Of a stretch of DNA of 64,000 bases, positions 52,976 through 61,278 are shown in pieces. The notes beneath the pieces were generated by a model. That model saw only the letters and a list, made by a program, of their open reading frames with translations, was not told where the DNA came from and made no database searches. The DNA is taken from contig CAWIZN010000033.1 in NCBI GenBank assembly GCA_963840495.1, positions 12,049 through 76,048 on the forward strand, written 5' to 3'. The DNA comes from an uncultured Candidatus Rokubacteria bacterium. GTDB taxonomy: Bacteria > Methylomirabilota > Methylomirabilia > Rokubacteriales > CSP1-6. A program made the translations under genes and the position numbers. Every line of letters begins with the position of its first letter. Positions within the stretch are counted from its first letter, which is position 1.

Positions 52976-54127
52976 ATGGACTTCACGCTGACATCCGAGC
53001 AGGACGAGCTGGTCCGCACGCTTCGAGGCTTCGCGAAGAAGGAGCTTGCCCCGCGATCATCCGAGTGGGACCGGAGCGGCGAGTTCCCGTGGGATGCGTG
53101 GAAGAAAATGGGGGAGCTGGGGCTCCTCGGGCTCCGGACCCCTGCGGCCTACGGGGGTCAAGAGGCCGATCTCCTCACCATGGGCATCGCCAGCGAGGAG
53201 ATCGCGCGCGGGGACTTCAGCTGCACCTACGGCATCCAGCTCGCCGGCCTCGCCGGAGAGATCCTGGGGAAGAGCGGCAGCGACGAGATCAAGGCGCGCT
53301 GGTTGCCCTCCACCGCGCGTGGGGAGACCATTGTCGCCCTCGCCCTGACCGAGCCCGGCGTCGGCTCCGACGCCGCCAGCCTGTCCTGTCGCGCCGTGCG
53401 CGACGGCGACGCGTACCTGATCACGGGCGAGAAGTCCGGGATCAGCCTCGGAATGGTCGCGCAGGCGGCTATCGTGTTCGCGCGCACCGACGCCGATGCC
53501 AAGGCGCGGGGCGTGACCGCGTTTCTGGTCCCGCTCGACCTGCCCGGCATCTCGCGAAGCCCCCTCCGGGATCTGGGAACCCGCGCGATAGCGCGCGCCG
53601 TGCTCTCCTTCGATCACGTCCGGGTCCCGGCGTCCCACCGGCTCGGAGCGGAGGGCACGGGCTTCTATCAGGTCATGCAGGGCTTCGACTACAACCGAGT
53701 CCTCATCGCGCTCTCCTGCCTCGGCGTGGCGCAGATTTCCCTCGAGGAGACCATGGCCTACGTGAAGGAGCGCCGGACGTTCGGGCGAGCACTCGCCACC
53801 TACGAAGGCGTATCGTTTCCCATCGCGGAGGCGGCGACGCATGTCGACGCGTGCCGGCTGCTCTCGTACCGCGCGCTCTGGCTTGCCGACCGCGGCGAGC
53901 CATATACGAAGGAATCGGCGATGGTGAAGTGGTGGGGGCCGAAGCTCTCGGTGGAGACCATCCATCAGTGCCTGCTGCTCCACGGCCACTACGGCTATAC
54001 CGACGAGCTGCCGTTCGAACAGCGCCTGCGGGACGTGATCGGGCTCGAGATCGGGGACGGAACCGCCGAGATCATGAAGGTCGTCGTCGCTCGCGAGCTG
54101 ATGGGGCGCGCGAGCCTGCCCTACTAG
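52976..54127 (+). CDS. Acyl-CoA dehydrogenase
   Basis: 383 aa. ..ALTEPGVGSDAASL.. and a C-terminal ..DVIGLEIGDGTAEIMKVVVAREL.. (catalytic Glu region). Confidence 0.7.
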   Translation: MDFTLTSEQDELVRTLRGFAKKELAPRSSEWDRSGEFPWDAWKKMGELGLLGLRTPAAYGGQEADLLTMGIASEEIARGDFSCTYGIQLAGLAGEILGKSGSDEIKARWLPSTARGETIVALALTEPGVGSDAASLSCRAVRDGDAYLITGEKSGISLGMVAQAAIVFARTDADAKARGVTAFLVPLDLPGISRSPLRDLGTRAIARAVLSFDHVRVPASHRLGAEGTGFYQVMQGFDYNRVLIALSCLGVAQISLEETMAYVKERRTFGRALATYEGVSFPIAEAATHVDACRLLSYRALWLADRGEPYTKESAMVKWWGPKLSVETIHQCLLLHGHYGYTDELPFEQRLRDVIGLEIGDGTAEIMKVVVARELMGRASLPY

Positions 54128-54167
54128 TCCGCCCCGCACCGGCCTCGAGCCCGCCGGAAAAGAGAAA

Positions 54168-54196
54168 GGGCTCCAGGGGTTACCCCCTGGAGCCCT
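54168..54196. terminator. Bidirectional intrinsic-terminator hairpin GGGCTCCAGGGG-tta-CCCCTGGAGCCC
   Basis: Perfect 12-bp GC-rich inverted repeat between the convergent acyl-CoA dehydrogenase gene and the repeat-protein gene fragment, preceded by an A-rich and followed by a T-containing tract. Copy 2 at 56929..56956. Confidence 0.6.
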
Positions 54197-54215: not shown

Positions 54216-54650
54216 TTACTTCTTCAGCAGGGCCATCGCGGCCTTGGCCTTCTCGGAGGCCACGTCGGCCTTGCCGGCCTTGCAAGCGGCCTCAGCCTCG
54301 GTCACGAGCGCCGTGGCCTTCTTCGTGTCGGCGCCGCGAGTAGCGGCAGCAGCCTGAGTCTTGCCATCCTGACTCCGAGGAGACTGGATGTCCTGGCTCC
54401 GCGGCGACTGGATGTCCTGGCTCCGCGGCGACTGGATGTCCTGGCTCCGAGGCGACTGGACGTCCTGGCTGCGCGGCGACTGGATGTCCTGGCTCCGCGG
54501 CGACTGGATGTCCTGGCTCCGGGGCGACTGGATGTCCTGGCTCCGCGGCGACTGGATGTCCTGGCTCCGGGGCGACTGGATGTCCTGGCTCCGCGGCGCC
54601 TGCACGTCCTGGCTCCGGGGCGACTGGATGTCCTGACTCCGCGGCGCCTG
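54216..54650 (-). pseudogene. 5'-truncated second copy of the SPRSQDIQ-repeat protein gene (3' 435 bp only), truncated by the IS element
   Basis: Encodes ..(SPRSQDIQ)x11..GKTQAAAATRGADTKKATALVTEAEAACKAGKADVASEKAKAAMALLKK*. ~520 bp are near-identical to 56912..57590. The frame runs into the IS left end with no start. Confidence 0.5.
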
Positions 54651-56888
54651 CTAGCTAGTTTCTGTGTCGAAAAAGAAATAGTCTAATAGGGCAAGTGGTT
54701 ACGGCGCAGATCGCCGTGTTGGCCGCGGGGCCCTCGCCTCCATTTCATTGGGATTTGGCGCGCGGCGCGGCCCGACGGGCGCGCCTTGCGGCGCACGCGA
54801 GGGCGGACGGGCGCCGTCCCGAACCGCAGCGCGGCCAGCTCCAAGCCCGCCGCGATCCACGCCTCCACGAGGGTGCGCAGCCGCTCGTAGGTGCGCAACT
54901 GCTGCCGCGTCGTCGCCACGTTCTCGCGGCGCACGAACTGCGTGTGGCTGCGCCCCTGCCAGGTGAAGCTCACCTGGTAGTACGGCCCGTGCTTGCGCGG
55001 GGGATCGGCCTTGCACGCACAGCCGGCCTTGCCGCACACGTTGTACTGTTCGGAGAGCGTGCCCGGCCGGAGGTCGCCCAGCGTCAGCAGTTCCTGCTTC
55101 AGCGTCGTCGATCTTCGCTTCCAGATGGGCCTGGCGGGTCCCTGTCGTCATCGCGGCCCTCATCGTAGCGCGAAATCGTGTTGACGCGGTGCGGGCCGAC
55201 GCAGTAGAATCCGGCAGCATTATAGTGCTGTCGGGTCCATTCCTTCACTCGGAGAGCGTGCCGATGCGTCTGTCCTGTCCGCCCGCAGCCCAGCTTCGCC
55301 GACCTCGAACTGCAGCGGCAGGGCCTCGCCGTGGATGCCACCCTGCACGCGATCGGCGAGCTCCTCGATGCGCAGCCCGGATTGGTCGACCTGGTCCGCC
55401 AGGATTTGGTGCGCGACTTGCGCCAGCCCCACACCGGGCGCGACGGCCTCACGGCCGAGCAGACGCTGCGCGCCTACGTGTTGAAGCACGTGAAGAACTG
55501 GGATCTGCGGGAGCTGCGCGAGCGCACCGCCGATGGCTTCACCCTGCGCGACTTCACGCGGTTCTTCAGTGCCCCCGTGCCCACGCACAAGGCGTTCCAC
55601 CGCGCGTTCTGTCGGCTGCGGCCCGAGACCGTGCGCGCCCTCAACGAGGCCGTGGTGCGCGCGGCCGTGGCGCAGGGGCTGGAGGATGGCCACCAGCTCC
55701 GCTCCGACACGACGGTCGTGGAGACGAACATCCACTTCCCGACCGACTCGGGCTTGCTGTGGGATGGGGTGCGCGTGCTCACGCGCCTCGTCGGCAAGCT
55801 GCAGGCGTTGCTGCCCGAGCTGGCGGTCCCTTTCGTCAACCATACGCGCCGGGCCCGCCGCCGGATGCAGGAGATCGAGCGGCTGACGCCCACGCAGCGC
55901 CAGACGCAGCAGGTCCCCAAGTACCGCGCCTTGATCACGCTCACGACGACAGGTCCTCGCCGCCGCCCGCGCGGTGGCCGCGGCGGCGCGCGCCGCGCCG
56001 GGCCCCGATCCGCTCACCGGCATCCAGGTGGACGCCCTGGCGACGGAGATCACCACGTATGGCGAGCGGATTGATCGGGTGATCGCGCAGGCGCGCCGCC
56101 GCGTCCTGCAGGGCGAGACGGTGGCCACCGCGGACAAGCTCTTCTCGATCTTCGAGCCCCACACGGACCTGATCAAGCGCGGCAAGGCCCAGCGGCCCGT
56201 GGAGTTCGGCCACAAAGTCCTCCTGAGCGAGAGCGGGCACGGCCTGATCACCGACTACCGCGTGCTCGAGGGCAATCCCACAGACGATCAACACGTCGCC
56301 CCGTCGCTGGCGCACCACATCGCGCTCTTCGGGGGCCCGCCCACGCTCGCGGCGCACGACCGCGGCTTCTACAGCCTCGCGGCGATCGAGGCCTGTCAGG
56401 CCGCGGGCGTGACCACCGAGTGCATCCCGCAGCGCGGCGGCCGCAAGACGCCGGAGCGGGCGGCGCATGAGAAGAGCCGCGCGTTTCGCCGCGGCCAACG
56501 CTTTCGCGCCGGCATTGAAGGGCGGATCTCGGTGCTCTTCCGCGGGCGGGGGATGAAGCGCTGTCTGCTGCACGGGCGCGAGCGCTTCGAGCTCTTCGTC
56601 GGGCTCGCCGTGCTCGCCAACAACTTGCTGGTCATCGCCGACTTGCGTCAAGCGGCGCGCGGCGCGGAGACGGCGCGCCGCGTAGCCGCTCTCTTCGTCT
56701 GCCGGCGCGCCGGAGCAGCGGTCGACGTCTCGGTCTCGGCATCGGCGCGCGCGGTCCGTGCCCTCATCAACCCCCACGCATGTCTCTTCACGCTGTTCGA
56801 AACTCGTCGTACATCTCTGGCGGGTCACCGTCTCCTGAGTCTCTGGCTTTTCCCACACTTCAGCTGTTTCGACACAGAAACTAGCTAG
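54651..56888 (+). mobile_element. Insertion sequence (~2.2 kb) with 22-bp TIRs CTAGCTAGTTTCTGTGTCGAAA, possible CTAG target duplication, and a DDE (DDE_Tnp_1, IS4/IS5-superfamily-like) transposase
   Basis: Left end ctagctagtttctgtgtcgaaa (54651..) and right end tttcgacacagaaactagctag (..56888) are perfect inverted repeats. Internal ORFs 55264/55331..56074 and 55974..56888 encode a transposase with HFPTDSGLLWD and HDRGFYS DDE motifs. A minus-strand ORF 54683..55039 (Cys-rich, 118 aa) lies in the left arm. Confidence 0.7.
55264..56888 (+). CDS. DDE transposase of the IS element, interrupted by at least two frameshifts (~55295 and ~55975). The tail beyond ~56650 is probably a stop-less artefact.
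   Basis: MRLSCPPAAQ.. shifts into ..SFADLELQRQGLAVDATLHAIGELLD..ETNIHFPTDSGLLWD.., then shifts again into ..IQVDALATEITTYGERIDRVIAQ..EFGHKVLLSESGHGLITDYRVLEGNPTDDQHV..AHDRGFYS... Confidence 0.5.
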
Positions 56889-56928: not shown

Positions 56929-56956
56929 GGGCTCCAGGGGTGACCCCCTGGAGCTC
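56929..56956. terminator. Intrinsic-terminator hairpin GGGCTCCAGGGG-tga-CCCCTGGAGCTC downstream of the repeat-protein gene
   Basis: 12-bp inverted repeat (one mismatch), duplicate of the hairpin at 54168. Confidence 0.55.
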
Positions 56957-56976: not shown

Positions 56977-58113
56977 TTACTTCTTCAGCAAAGACATCGC
57001 GGCCTTGGCCTTCTCGGAGGCCACGTCAGCTTTGCCGGCCTTGCACGCGGCCTCGGCCTCGTTCACGAGCGCCGTGGCCTTCTTGGTGTCGGCTCCGCGA
57101 GTAGCGGCAGCAGCCTGAGTCTTGCCATCCTGACTCCGAGGAGACTGGATGTCCTGGCTCCGCGGCGACTGGATGTCCTGGCTCCGCGGCGACTGGATGT
57201 CCTGGCTCCGCGGCGACTGGATGTCCTGGCTCCGCGGCGACTGGATGTCCTGGCTCCGCGGCGACTGCATGTCCTGGCTCCGCGGCGACTGGATGTCCTG
57301 GCTCCGCGGCGACTGGATGTCCTGGCTGCGGGGCGACTGGATGTCCTGGCTCCGCGGCGACTGGATGTCCTGGCTCCGCGGCGACTGGATGTCCTGGCTC
57401 CGCGGCGACTGGATGTCCTGGCTGCGCGGCGACTGGATGTCCTGGCTCCGCGGCGACTGGATGTCCTGGCTCCGGGGCGACTGGATGTCCTGACTCCGCG
57501 GCGCCTGCACGTCCTGGCTCCGCGGCGACTGGATGTCCTGACTCCGCGGCGCCTGCACGTCCTGGCTACGCGCACCCGCTAGCGAGCGGGGAGCCTGGAT
57601 GTCCTGCGTGCGAGGGGACTGCACATCCTGGCTGCGCGGCGACTGGATGTTCTGGCTCCGGGGCGACTGGATGTCCTGGCTCCGCGGCGACTGGATGTCC
57701 TGGCTCCGGGGCGACTGGATGTCCTGGCTCCGCGGCGCCTGCACGTCCTGGCTGCGCGGCGACTGGATGTCCTGGCTCCGCGGCGCCTGCACGTCCTGAC
57801 TACGCGCACCCGCTAGCGAGCGGGGAGCCTGGATATCCTGCGAGCGAGGGGACTGCACATCCTGGCTGCGCGGCGCCTGAATGTTCTGGCTCCGGGGCGA
57901 CTGGATGTCCTGGCTACGAGGGGACTGCACGTCCTGCCGCGCTCCCGCCAGGGACCGCGGGGCCTGGACCTCATCCGTCCGCGCCGTCATCTGCTTCAGC
58001 ATCGCCTTGGCCGCGTCGACATCCGGGCAAGAGGCGGTCTGAGCCGAGCCAACGGTCGGGGAAAACGAGACGAGGAACGCGAAACTCAACACTGCGGAAA
58101 TTGCCTTCTTCAT
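56977..58113 (-). CDS. Secreted tandem-repeat protein: signal peptide, short Cys-containing N-terminal domain, ~34 octapeptide repeats (SPRSQDIQ/APRSQDVQ), Lys/Ala-rich C-terminal tail
   Basis: ATG (cat 58111..58113) after AAAGGA gives MKKAISAVLSFAFLVSFSPTVGSAQTASCPDVDAAKAMLKQM.. It is followed by 24-bp units (ctggatgtcctggctccgcggcga on the + strand) and ends ..GKTQAAAATRGADTKKATALVNEAEAACKAGKADVASEKAKAAMSLLKK*. The upstream extension to 58188 is rejected. Confidence 0.65.
   Translation of the reverse strand: MKKAISAVLSFAFLVSFSPTVGSAQTASCPDVDAAKAMLKQMTARTDEVQAPRSLAGARQDVQSPRSQDIQSPRSQNIQAPRSQDVQSPRSQDIQAPRSLAGARSQDVQAPRSQDIQSPRSQDVQAPRSQDIQSPRSQDIQSPRSQDIQSPRSQNIQSPRSQDVQSPRTQDIQAPRSLAGARSQDVQAPRSQDIQSPRSQDVQAPRSQDIQSPRSQDIQSPRSQDIQSPRSQDIQSPRSQDIQSPRSQDIQSPRSQDIQSPRSQDIQSPRSQDIQSPRSQDMQSPRSQDIQSPRSQDIQSPRSQDIQSPRSQDIQSPRSQDIQSPRSQDGKTQAAAATRGADTKKATALVNEAEAACKAGKADVASEKAKAAMSLLKK
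57125..57950. repeat. ~34 copies of a 24-bp coding tandem repeat with very few variants (ctggaCgtcc, cTgcatgtcc, cgcgGggcgac, cgcgCacccgctagcgagcggg spacer-like variants at 57560 and 57800)
   Basis: Direct inspection. The unit CTGGATGTCCTGGCTCCGCGGCGA repeats head-to-tail. Two longer variant units (gctacgcgcacccgctagcgagcggggagcctggat..) occur about every 10 units. Not CRISPR: no unique spacers, and the repeats are in-frame coding. Confidence 0.8.
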
Positions 58114-58440
58114 GTGCGATCGTCCTTTCTGTGTGGGGCCTGTTTCAGAATTGTCGCCGAGCCTCCCACCAGGCTCGACCCCGTTCAACCGTTCTACCCG
58201 CCAACCCGGCTCGCCTGCCGTCTGTCACGCTTCCTGCGAACGCTCGCTAGGGGTGCAGGAGCGATGCCATGCCCGCCCAATGCCAGAGACTTCATATGTT
58301 TCAAGGGTTTATGGCTTCTACGCCCGGGTCGGCTGGGCATTCCAGGTGGCGTTCTGCCGCTTGGGGCCGAGCCACCTACCCGGCAAACTGCAAGGGTCAG
58401 GTCGTCGCTGTCCGGGACCTACTTCGCGGCCTTCGCCTCA

Positions 58441-59300
58441 TAGCGGAACTTCGACATCTCGGCGAGTTGATCGAGCGTCATCACTCCCTCCCGGGTCTGG
58501 CCATTGATGACCCAGGTAGGAAACGACTTCACCCCGGCTTGCCGGCAGAGGTCGGGCCGGGGATTGGCGCCCTTCGGGTCGCACTCCACATACGGGATGT
58601 CCTTCGCCGCGGGCCCGAACCGGGCCTTTTGCTCTTGGCACGCCGGTCACCAGAACGCGCCGTACATCACCGCTTTCGTGTCGGCGAGGTGACGCGCGAG
58701 CGCGGATTGGTAGCCCGGCGGAGCGGAGAAGGGAGCGGCAAACACGAAGGCGGCGACGACGACGGCGCCCACGGCAGCGAGCCCTCCGTTCGTGGCGAGC
58801 CGGGCCGAGCTCATCGCCGGCTTCCGGTTCCGCGCCGCGGGCCGGCGCATCACGAGGACCGCGAGCATTGCGATCAAAATGACGGCTGACGTGAGACACC
58901 AGACACAGGTCGCGCCGAGATCGAACACGGACAGCCAAGTGAGGTAGGCCGAAAACCCCACACCACCTGCGGCCAACGCGAACGCGATCGGCCAATTGCG
59001 CGGCGTGAGCCCCATCCAGGCAAGGACGCCGATCGCCACGTAGGTGGCGAGGCCCCAGAGTGCCGTCGGCACCCACAGGAATGTCGCGTACCGACTCGCC
59101 TGCACGATGTCGCATCCGCTGCCCGCGACGCAGAGCGCCGCTCCGGAACCGCTCAACTTGAGCCAGGTAAGATAGGCCGCGACGAGCATGCCGGCCGCGG
59201 CGAGCCCGCTCAGCACCCAGTCCGGGCGCTCGACGGGTGACGCTGCGGGCTCGGTCTTGCGTTTGACCTCGACCTTGCGCTTGCGATCGACGTGAGCCAT
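58441..59300 (-). CDS. VKOR-thioredoxin-like fusion protein with in-frame UGA (58647..58649) at the first Cys position of the C-terminal CxxC, read as selenocysteine (motif W-U-P-A-C)
   Basis: ORF 58647..59300 has VKOR TM helices with CVAGSGCD and CVWC motifs and ends ..MYGAFW-TGA. The same frame continues PACQEQKARFGPAAKDIPYVECDPKGANPRPDLCRQAGVKSFPTWVINGQTREGVMTLDQLAEMSKFRYEAKAAK* (thioredoxin fold). Confidence 0.5.
58612..58626 (-). promoter_or_regulatory. Putative SECIS-like hairpin GGCCCG-GUU-CGGGCC 20 nt downstream of UGA 58647..58649
   Basis: Perfect 6-bp stem, U-containing loop, immediately 3' of the in-frame UGA on the coding (minus) strand. Confidence 0.35.
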
Positions 59301-59887: not shown

Positions 59888-61278
59888 GTGAGGGCGCCAG
59901 GCGAGATCCTGCTCATCGCCGGCTATGAGCTCGGCCATCAGCCGCTCGCGGTCGCATGGCCGGCCGCCTTCCTCGAGCGGCTCGGTTATCAGCCGGCCGT
60001 GATGGACGTGTCGGTGGAGGCCTTCGACGCCCGGCGCGCCAGGCAGGCGAAGCTCGTGGCCGTGTCGGTGCCCATGCACACCGCCCTGCGCATCGGCGTC
60101 ACGGTCATCGACCGTGTGCGCGCGGTGAACCCCGACTGCCACCTGTGCTTCTACGGCCTGTACGCGAGCCTCAATGCCGAGTATCTCCTCGGCCATGGCG
60201 CCGACAGCGTGATCGGCGGCGAGGCAGAAGGCCCGCTCGGCGAGCTGGCAACCGCGCTCGAGACCGGCGCGGCCACGCCGAGCTCGGTCGAGGACAAAGG
60301 CGCAACCGGCCGGGCCCTATCTCAGGCGCCTCGACTTTCCCGTCCCGAGCCGCGCGCAGCTTCCTGCCCTTCAGACGTACGTGAAGATCGAGCGCGGCGG
60401 CCGGCAAGATCCGGCCGGGTACGTCGAGGCGAGCCGCGGCTGCCGGCATCTCTGCCGGCACTGCCCGATCCCGCCGGTCTATGGCGGCCGGTTCTTCGCG
60501 GTGCCGCGCGACGTCGTCCTCGCGGACATCCGGCAACAGGTGGCGGCGGGCGCCACTCACATCACCTTCGGCGACCCCGACTTTCTGAACGGGCCCACGC
60601 ATGCGCTCCGGCTGGCGCGCGAGCTCCACGCGGAGATGCCGGCGCTCACCTTCGACTTCACCGCGAAGATCGAGCACCTGATCGCCCATCGGGACCTCCT
60701 GAAGGAGCTCGCGGCCTGCGGAGGCATCTTCGTCGTCTCCGCCGCCGAGTCGCTGAGCCCGGCGGTCCTCGAGCACCTCGACAAGGGCCATACGCGGGCC
60801 GATATCGTCCAGGCGATCCAGGCGGCGCGCGGGGCGGGCATCGCCTTCCGGCCGACCTGGGTCGCGTTCACGCCTTGGACCACCCTGACCGACTACCGGG
60901 AGATGCTCGATTTCATCGAGGCGCGAGGAGCTGATCGACCACGTCGAGCCCGTCCAGTACGCGCTCCGGCTCCTCGTCCCGCCCGGCTCGCTGCTCGTCG
61001 ACAGCGCCGCGATGCGCCCGTACCTGGGCGCGCTCGAGGAGGGGACGTTCTCCTATCGCTGGGAGCACCCCGATCCCCGGATGGACGCGCTGCAAGAGGC
61101 CGTGATGGCGCGCGTGACCCGGGCGGCGGAGACCCGGGAAGATCCCGCCGTGACCTTCGACCACGTGAGGGCGCTCGCGAATGAGGCGGCGGGAGCCGCG
61201 GTGGCGCGGGCCGCGGCGGCCCAGCTCGCCGCCGACCGGCCGCGCCCGCCCCGGCTCACCGAGCCGTGGTTCTGCTGA
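59888..61278 (+). CDS. B12-binding-domain radical SAM protein, with two single-base frameshifts (~60300 and ~60915)
   Basis: N-terminal cobalamin-binding-like domain (ILLIAGYELGHQPLAV..). After the first shift, ..RPYLRRLDFPVPSRAQLPALQTYVKIERGGRQD..ASRGCRHLCRHCPI (CxxxCxxC radical SAM core). After the second, ..EELIDHVEPVQYALRLLVPPGSLLVDSAAMRPYLGALEEGTFSYRWEHPDP.. Confidence 0.55.

Follow-up and report, generated by a model that had tools for sequence, protein, structure and literature searches.

Which role can be ascribed to an exported bacterial protein that consists for the most part of a single octapeptide repeated with little variation, and is such an array a recent oddity of one genome or an inherited trait of its lineage? 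This question is raised by a repeat-protein gene, here designated copy A, that is located in a stretch of 64,000 nucleotides from an uncultured Candidatus Rokubacteria bacterium (contig CAWIZN010000033.1, positions 12,049 to 76,048; assembly GCA_963840495.1). The whole stretch is referred to as the window, and an earlier note on it had described copy A from the letters alone. Sequence-based evidence strongly supports that its predicted product is exported by Sec, is no lipoprotein and resides in the envelope of a Methylomirabilota/Rokubacteria bacterium, and that it belongs to a phylum-restricted, unannotated family with common end caps and a common motif. Structure prediction strongly supports two helical end caps as the only ordered parts after cleavage of the signal peptide, and an intrinsically disordered array of the type [AS]PRSQD[IV]Q for the approximately 280 residues between them. 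The comparison of close relatives documents that this array grows and shrinks by whole 24-bp units and is locally homogenised, and the codon differences within it strongly support that selection keeps the peptide motif.

Predicted architecture of the repeat protein

The gene and the parts of its product are located in the window as follows.

56977..58113, minus strand: copy A, the full-length repeat-protein gene, an uninterrupted open reading frame of 378 amino acids (aa) plus stop
58123..58128, minus strand: Shine-Dalgarno-like AAAGGA, 9 nt 5' of the ATG, read from the sequence
58042..58113 (aa 1-24), minus strand: Sec-type signal peptide MKKAISAVLSFAFLVSFSPTVGSA, followed by QT, recognised by sequence inspection
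57964..58041 (aa 25-50), minus strand: N-terminal cap segment with Cys28, a helix at 30-49 and the motif CPxEVxxAKxML
57121..57963 (aa 51-331), minus strand: repeat array, 33 xPR units parsed from the translation
56980..57120 (aa 332-378), minus strand: C-terminal cap segment with helices at 333-358 and 362-377 and Cys357
56931..56954, minus strand: terminator-like hairpin with T-run, 3' of copy A

The mechanical open reading frame of copy A reaches upstream to a TTG at 58188. The ATG at 58113, which the earlier note had chosen as the start, is supported by the AAAGGA sequence upstream of it and by the agreement with the N-termini of orthologues, since P0121, P0123 and P0127 from other samples share the N-terminus MKKAISAVLSF with the window protein. 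The order of signal peptide, N-terminal domain, array and Lys/Ala-rich tail had been described correctly. The predicted signal peptide exhibits a KK n-region, a hydrophobic core and small residues at positions -3 and -1, a pattern that is kept in the family alignments A1 and A2. The sequence MKKAISAVLSFAFLVSFSPTVGSA followed by QTASC fits the family rule of small residues and a subsequent Q/A-x-x-C, as judged by inspection. A lipoprotein was considered and rejected because a lipobox ([LVI][ASTVI][GAS]C) is missing: the window protein reads Q-T-A-S-C, and the residue preceding the Cys is N, Q, K, D or P in its relatives.

The array comprises 33 units as assembled, a number whose share from the homogenised 3' block depends on the assembly, namely 30 octapeptides of 24 bp and three longer APRSLAGAR units of 39-42 bp. 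Tandem Repeats Finder reports 34.2 copies of period 24 at 57128-57936. The claim of a long array of about 34 near-identical repeats accordingly holds for the array as such, and the count is corrected to 33 parsed units; of the longer variants there are three rather than the two noticed before, the first of them opening the array. Among the octapeptides, SPRSQDIQ is found 17 times, APRSQDIQ four times, SPRSQDVQ three times and SPRSQNIQ twice, and APRSQDVQ, SPRTQDIQ, SPRSQDMQ and the terminal unit SPRSQDGK occur once each. The longer units of the type APRSLAGAR(S)QDVQ are APRSLAGARQDVQ at aa 51, the array opener, and APRSLAGARSQDVQ at aa 96 and 174. The identical 24-mer TCGCCGCGGAGCCAGGACATCCAG is present in 11 units, the longest stretch of identical neighbouring units is five, and serine is encoded by AGC as well as TCG within the array. 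The array is charge-balanced with one Arg and one Asp per unit, which corresponds to one Arg and one acidic residue per unit in the family as a whole.

Both cap segments carry a conserved cysteine. In the N-terminal cap CPDVDAAKAMLKQM, Cys28 is conserved in at least 90% of the family and Ala35 is invariant; the C-terminal cap ALVNEAEAACKAGKADVASEKAKAAMSLLKK matches the family motif LVxEAEAACKAG...K, and its Cys357 is invariant in alignment A1. The two cysteines noticed before, one in the N-terminal domain and one in the tail, thereby proved to be the two conserved Cys columns of the family. AlphaFold2, run with alignment A1, places helices at 30-49, 333-358 and 362-377 with a predicted local distance difference test (pLDDT) score above 90 (94 for the N-terminal and 94-96 for the C-terminal cap). 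For the array it returns a pLDDT of about 45 and no secondary structure, which bears out the intrinsic disorder proposed in the earlier note. The same three helices are predicted for the short orthologue P0121, which is 89% identical and has three units, with a pLDDT of about 80.

A Foldseek comparison of the P0121 model with the PDB retrieved only generic three-helix bundles (E >0.8), and the best matches are bundles of about 80 residues that align across about 94 columns. Because these best matches are single three-helix bundles, the comparison weakly suggests that the three helices pack together as one small cap. The former description of one cysteine in an N-terminal domain and one in the tail is modified in this respect: both cysteines are located on segments that are confidently modelled as helices and probably form one small three-helix cap rather than two unrelated domains. 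In the topology of the model, Cys28 shortly precedes helix 1, and Cys357 is located where the antiparallel helix 2 ends. Both cysteines would therefore reside at the same end of the bundle, so that a disulfide between them could form and the array could become a closed loop.

Family distribution and array turnover

The protein is not an isolated oddity, as it had appeared from the window alone, because the search of protein databases revealed a large phylum-restricted family with conserved end caps. Of two word-based searches, the one that used the complete protein retrieved 131 matches and the one that used its two ends, joined by two units, retrieved 305. The exhaustive profile search of 1.84 billion cluster representatives retrieved 614 clusters at 50% identity with E<=0.001, 247 of them with E<=1e-10. 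A scan of one genome per species provided 112 confirmed loci, and the locus comparisons reported here rest on 80 of them. Nearly all of these 80 loci are titled Candidatus Rokubacteria, Rokuibacteriota or Methylomirabilota, and the named relatives of the acyl-CoA dehydrogenase encoded next to the repeat genes of the window are Methylomirabilota as well, so that the window is assigned to this phylum. The few loci in bins of other names are suspected to be mis-binned contigs. One of them is L045 (CAWFIT010000006.1), a contig from a metagenome-assembled genome (MAG) that is titled 'uncultured Actinomycetes bacterium' despite its synteny with the window and a family that is otherwise confined to Rokubacteria; it is probably mis-binned or mislabelled.

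The family signature that emerges from alignments A1 and A2 comprises the signal peptide, the CPxEVxxAKxML helix, the segment QAPRSLAGAR, the array and the tail LVxEAEAACKAGDMxxAxxKAxAAxxxLK. Of the two cysteines, the C-terminal one is invariant and the N-terminal one at least 90% conserved. In the APRSLAGA segment of A2, A51, P52, A56, G57 and A58 are invariant and R53, S54 and L55 are conserved in at least 90%. The array follows the formula [AS]PR-x(1-3)-Q-[DE]-[VI]-Q, and the window protein agrees with the family in array, caps and signal peptide. The repeat period is eight in most lineages and 7, 9 or 10 in others (APRSQQE, SPRGNQDVQ, APRSSTQDVQ), the unit number ranges from 2 to about 40, and genomes harbor one to three copies, one MAG holding three (L005, L017 and L021). 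Relatives such as P0121, P0020, P0025 and P0231 (Ca. Rokubacteria bacterium CSP1-6) share signal peptide, caps, the opening APRSLAGAR unit and array with the window protein. The latter differs from most members by a Ser instead of a Gly (PRS versus PRG), and with its 33 units it is located at the long end of the family, where only some MAG loci reach 30-40. Four large proteins with look-alike repeats and without caps (P0255, P0310, P0355 and P0337) were rejected as members and treated as convergent. P0337 has 475 aa with about 25 octapeptides TPRQ(V/I)D(V/L)Q, a signal-like N-terminus of its own and a hydrophobic C-terminal segment, and its likeness is possibly convergent.

In the source records no member bears a name other than 'hypothetical protein', the short mature homologue has no match in Pfam at E<=1, and a literature search with the motif strings and for Rokubacteria repeat proteins returned nothing relevant. 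Neither Pfam and NCBIfam nor the searchable literature contains a description of this family, of its split helical cap or of its conservation throughout the phylum. A PDB sequence search with the window protein gave no match. The sole match of a PDB profile search with the family is the Atg38 hairpin (5kc1; 31 residues, E 0.037), an MIT/TPR-like hairpin at the N-terminus of Atg38 that shares the pattern LxxxAExxCxxGxxxxAxxKxxxAxxxL; this match is no evidence of homology.

The composition of the array at the DNA level allows conclusions about its selection. The codons that deviate from the modal unit comprise 26 synonymous and 13 non-synonymous differences, the latter conservative, and a unit holds 5.3 synonymous and 18.7 non-synonymous sites, which results in a crude ratio of about 0.14. 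Across the family, the unit positions are kept at 80% (Q5), 78% (D/E6), 69% (V/I7) and 86% (Q8), the invariance of R being a matter of construction since the units are delimited by this residue. The array motif is under purifying selection, and the peptide motif is constrained beyond its composition. Its maintenance across differing periods (7-10) together with the purifying selection is indicative of a functional short linear motif. Of the earlier proposal of a disordered spacer, the disorder stands, but a mere spacer is too weak an explanation for a motif that is conserved across periods and under purifying selection.

Two contigs carry the orthologous locus with the VKOR-thioredoxin gene upstream and the acyl-CoA dehydrogenase gene downstream. 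L085, a metagenome contig of 198 kb, is 96-97% identical to the window at the DNA level on both flanks, which indicates the same species, and its single gene harbors 36 units. L045, a 92% relative whose identity to the window is 89-95%, has one gene with about 28 units. The order of the first 17 units is equal in the window and L085. The 3' block differs in the number of units and has been homogenised to ATC (Ile) in the window versus GTG (Val) in L085, thus documenting a recent and independent expansion and homogenisation. The variation in copy number that the earlier note had expected is accordingly seen among the orthologous loci of close relatives (33, 36 and about 28 units), and the near-identical proteins P0112 and P0095 have two and four units. 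Slippage should alter the length only, because the units of 24, 39 and 42 bp are multiples of three. A phase-variable gene with on/off switching was rejected for this reason, so that of the suspected phase-variation-like polymorphism the length polymorphism is retained.

Possible partners of the array

The genomic context of the family provides the most specific hint at a partner. In the main syntenic block, to which most loci of the family belong, genes for SecA, RecN, NAD kinase, rhomboid and two M16 peptidases are located upstream of the repeat gene on the opposite strand, and downstream follows either a same-strand Trypsin_2 protease gene or directly a convergent HIT/ABC gene. At about 40 of the 80 loci the start of a Trypsin_2/HtrA-like gene is found on the same strand between -4 and about +100 bp from the stop of the repeat gene, and in P0105 the gene call reads through the end of the repeat gene into the protease gene; the same-strand overlap of both genes suggests their co-expression. 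The catalytic domain of the adjacent protease matches the structures of DegP, DegS and HtrA (E 1e-8 to 1e-10), and its sequence reads as an apparent transmembrane segment and a rhodanese-like C-terminal part. The combination of an HtrA-type protease, a transmembrane segment and a rhodanese-like C-terminus (L005-L084) seemed unusual to us. At least one of the upstream M16 peptidases in the main locus has a lipobox-like signal.

We tentatively propose that the array would present its short linear motif multivalently to a partner in the envelope, possibly a protease. The exported protein would offer many copies of the motif to this partner rather than provide passive spacing. An HtrA-like, membrane-anchored S1 protease would be the likeliest class of partner, with the array protein as multi-site substrate, decoy or regulator, and this more specific part of the proposal is put forward with somewhat greater reserve. 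It is ranked first because of the operon-like adjacency and because each unit would present one aliphatic residue and one Pro-Arg. The usual P1 preference of HtrA proteases is an aliphatic residue.

Several observations weigh against this proposal. A protease gene adjoins neither the copy in the window nor its two orthologues, and it is missing next to the repeat gene at about half of the main loci; the link may be lineage-specific or may reflect a conserved gene order within one phylum. The units of some members lack V/I (AARGENPQ) and represent a poor HtrA site, a passive role would likewise be compatible with the tolerated range of 2 to about 40 units, and the packing of the bundle as well as the proximity of the two cysteines are deduced from the topology of predicted models. 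The window copy is a paralogue outside of the main syntenic block, as are L017, L021 and L001-L004. Within the window, neither an HtrA-like protease gene nor an M16 gene was found, and none of the neighbours from the main block is present. The window copy adjoins the VKOR-thioredoxin gene instead, an adjacency that is not a family trait because only L045 and L085 share it.

The alternative that survives best is a passive hydrophilic polymer that would act as an entropic spacer or brush or would fill the periplasm or cell surface and hold water there, for instance as a means to tolerate desiccation in soil; its caps would only anchor or close the array, and the sequence would matter little. The predicted disorder, the strict charge balance throughout the family, the wide range of tolerated unit numbers and the scattering of paralogues over unrelated contexts are all in accordance with such a polymer. 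A pure spacer normally keeps its composition and not its sequence, but P, R, Q, D/E, V/I and Q are retained even between lineages that differ in period and share only about 50% identity in their caps, the array exhibits an excess of synonymous changes, and the APRSLAGA run with its five invariant and three at least 90% conserved columns is conserved as strongly as the caps. We regard a purely passive function as somewhat less likely than the display to a partner.

Clearly less probable is a polyprotein precursor that envelope proteases cut at every unit, thereby freeing dozens of identical signal or bioactive octapeptides. The succession of a signal peptide and many nearly identical short units, the selection on the peptide sequence and the protease genes around the main locus (HtrA-like downstream, two M16 and rhomboid upstream) would suit a precursor, and NCBIfam contains a sub-threshold match to the thiovarsolin precursor (21.6 bits versus 35). 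But conserved modification enzymes do not adjoin the gene, the protease is missing from many loci and from the window, the upstream peptidases share their block with the housekeeping genes of SecA, RecN and NAD kinase and may represent plain synteny, and two conserved Cys-containing caps are needless for a mere precursor. The detailed version, in which HtrA-like and M16 enzymes would cut the polyprotein and repeat slippage would set the dose of octapeptides, is more improbable still. A thiovarsolin-type precursor of ribosomally synthesised and post-translationally modified peptides (NF033878) was rejected on its score below the cut-off. The Sec signal peptide does not fit a cytoplasmic leader/core precursor of this class, and the neighbours examined are the VKOR-thioredoxin, radical SAM and acyl-CoA dehydrogenase genes, no scan of the window having been aimed at YcaO/TfuA.

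Second gene copy, neighbouring genes and known repeat proteins

A truncated second repeat gene, copy B, is located 2.3 kb downstream of copy A behind an insertion sequence (IS). The features of this region are the following.

54655..56884, no strand assigned: IS5-like element of 2230 bp with 18-bp inverted ends CTAGTTTCTGTGTCGAAA
55331-56074 and 55974-56888, plus strand: split DUF772/DDE transposase of the IS
54683-55039, minus strand: DUF6788 passenger open reading frame of the IS
54216..54650, minus strand: copy B, a 5'-truncated second repeat gene with 12 units and the C-terminal tail
54167..54196, minus strand: terminator-like hairpin that follows copy B and immediately precedes the convergent acyl-CoA dehydrogenase gene
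52976-54127, plus strand: acyl-CoA dehydrogenase gene, convergent to copy B

Copy B has the same 24-bp repeat as copy A and lacks a start codon and a signal peptide. The IS is bordered by CTAG on both sides (54651-54654 and 56885-56888), and copy B opens with the exact order of units that is found after an APRSLAGAR unit, which contains the only CTAG of the array. Full-length copies of the IS with 87-92% identity are common in soil metagenomes, and their flanks end with NTA(G/A). The matching CTAGs are consequently no proof of a simple insertion, because this IS always sits between NTAR sites. It is the tail of copy B that is orthologous to those of related genomes: together with the sequence downstream of it, this tail shares 96.5% identity with L045, and L085 encodes an identical tail protein. 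For the tail of copy A, which represents the outgroup of copy B and L045, the identity amounts to 91.6% with L045 and 92.5% with copy B, the differences being mostly synonymous. In both L045 and L085 a single gene is found and the IS is missing. The arrangement is most simply read as a crossover of two haplotypes within the IS, either in the cell or in the assembler. Haplotype 1 would carry the IS at a CTAG just downstream of an intact gene, and haplotype 2 would carry it inside the array. Whichever the origin, a single gene that ended in the B-type tail was ancestral.

This arrangement bears on an assembly artefact as another explanation, according to which the length of the array or the layout of copy A, IS and copy B would be a mis-join of repeats from different strains, so that no cell would contain the gene in its assembled form. 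Many short-read contigs of the family break within the array, with matches that start at contig position 1-3, and P0121 resembles a collapsed version with three units. The tails of copies A and B differ by 7.5%, that of copy A having an outgroup position to copy B and L045, both flanks are 96-97% identical to L085, and IS elements are classic points of mis-joins. A scan of JGI metagenomes with the IS end retrieved many IS copies and neither the junction of A tail and IS nor that of IS and array. However, the independent contigs L045 and L085 hold about 28 and 36 units, the first 17 of which are arranged as in copy A, copy A is a clean uninterrupted open reading frame, and the junction of IS and array must occur in some genome for copy B to assemble. 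As two independent contigs of the locus carry arrays of a similar size, the long array is regarded as real, and an artefact appears improbable.

A triple-stranded beta-helix like the needle of phage T4 gp5 is hardly credible and already refuted as evidence of homology: the full protein matches Pfam PF22178 (Gp5_trimer_C; E 8.8e-16, 58.5 bits, cut-off 30.9), and the same precomputed match is found in some relatives, but arrays of the same eight residues in shuffled order reach 54.4, 51.9, 26.7 and 22.5 bits, members with a period of 7, 9 or 10 do not score, AlphaFold2 predicts no strands, the PDB contains no sequence match, and every unit has a proline and just a single hydrophobic residue. Since shuffled units score and other periods do not, the match reflects a resonance of two periodicities, and eight residues per repeat are all that the C-terminal beta-helix of gp5 with its VxGxxxxx octapeptides and the array have in common. 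The statement that the motif stems from no characterised family is hence upheld, given the missing Pfam match of the short homologue, the artefactual gp5 match of the full protein and the thiovarsolin score below the cut-off.

Some further observations concern the neighbouring genes upstream of copy A. At 58419-59300 on the minus strand, a VKOR domain is fused to a thioredoxin-like domain. An in-frame TGA at 58647-58649 replaces the first Cys of its CxxC motif (..YGAFW-TGA-PAC..), and in both L085 and L045 the TGA and the frame that continues downstream of it are conserved. Beginning 22 nt 3' of the TGA there is a hairpin with the sequence GGCCCG-GUU-CGGGCC. The putative product looks like a selenocysteine-containing enzyme that forms disulfide bonds. 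The folding energy of the hairpin is ordinary for its G+C content (z -0.06), it has no match to a selenocysteine insertion sequence (SECIS) in Rfam, and a search of the whole window in Rfam gave no matches. The B12-binding/radical SAM gene at 59888-61276 (plus strand) is intact with 462 aa in L085, and its frame is broken in the window by single-base insertions at 60289 and 60924 (an extra C before GAGG). It represents either a pseudogene or a systematic sequencing error, and in the latter case it hints at an error-prone long-read assembly as the source of the window. Finally, about 1.1 kb between an open reading frame of 131 aa and the VKOR gene in L085 and L045 are not present in the window at ~59356/59357. 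In L085 this stretch holds a gene called major facilitator superfamily (MFS) transporter, and its distribution reflects a deletion in the window or an insertion in the two other contigs.

Exported in-frame tandem-repeat disordered proteins of variable copy number are a well-known kind. In-frame tandem-repeat proteins have been reported as tandem repeat proteins (TRPs) of Ehrlichia (PMC3417381) and as amino-acid tandem repeats of archaeal Borg elements (PMC9879509). They share near-perfect nucleotide repeats in multiples of three, disordered polar regions and fast changes in copy number with the window protein. In contrast to these examples, the motif of the window protein is old, phylum-wide and under purifying selection and no recent lineage-specific invention; the protein is predicted to be exported by Sec and not by type 1 secretion; and in the model its array separates the two halves of a small helical cap. 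Charge-balanced octapeptide repeats are also known from the resilin-like polymer (GRGDSPYS)n, which like the window array is disordered and whose units of eight residues likewise contain Ser and Pro besides a single Arg and a single Asp. The window unit lacks an aromatic residue, and it belongs to a natural exported protein of bacteria. Multi-copy precursors of secreted peptides are represented by the yeast alpha-factor and the fungal dikaritins. They have a signal peptide and many subsequent copies of one short peptide in common with the window protein, whereas the latter lacks dibasic processing sites and has conserved structured caps.

If the link to the adjacent protease gene is true, the family would represent a new class of substrates or regulators for PDZ-less, membrane-anchored HtrA-like proteases; if the polyprotein reading is true, it would be a bacterial equivalent of the eukaryotic multi-copy peptide precursors. 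Digestion with trypsin should give many copies of one peptide (SQDIQSPR), which would be traceable in soil metaproteomes. The predicted architecture is that of a cap, possibly disulfide-stapled, which is split by a hypervariable disordered loop whose motif sequence is kept while period and number drift; such a design would separate the selection on a short linear motif from the selection on length. Rokubacteria and Methylomirabilota are abundant uncultured bacteria of soil and groundwater, and most of their lineage-specific proteins are uncharacterised. The presence of the family in most sampled members of the lineage at a fixed genomic position makes it a candidate for a lineage-defining component of the envelope and an easy marker.

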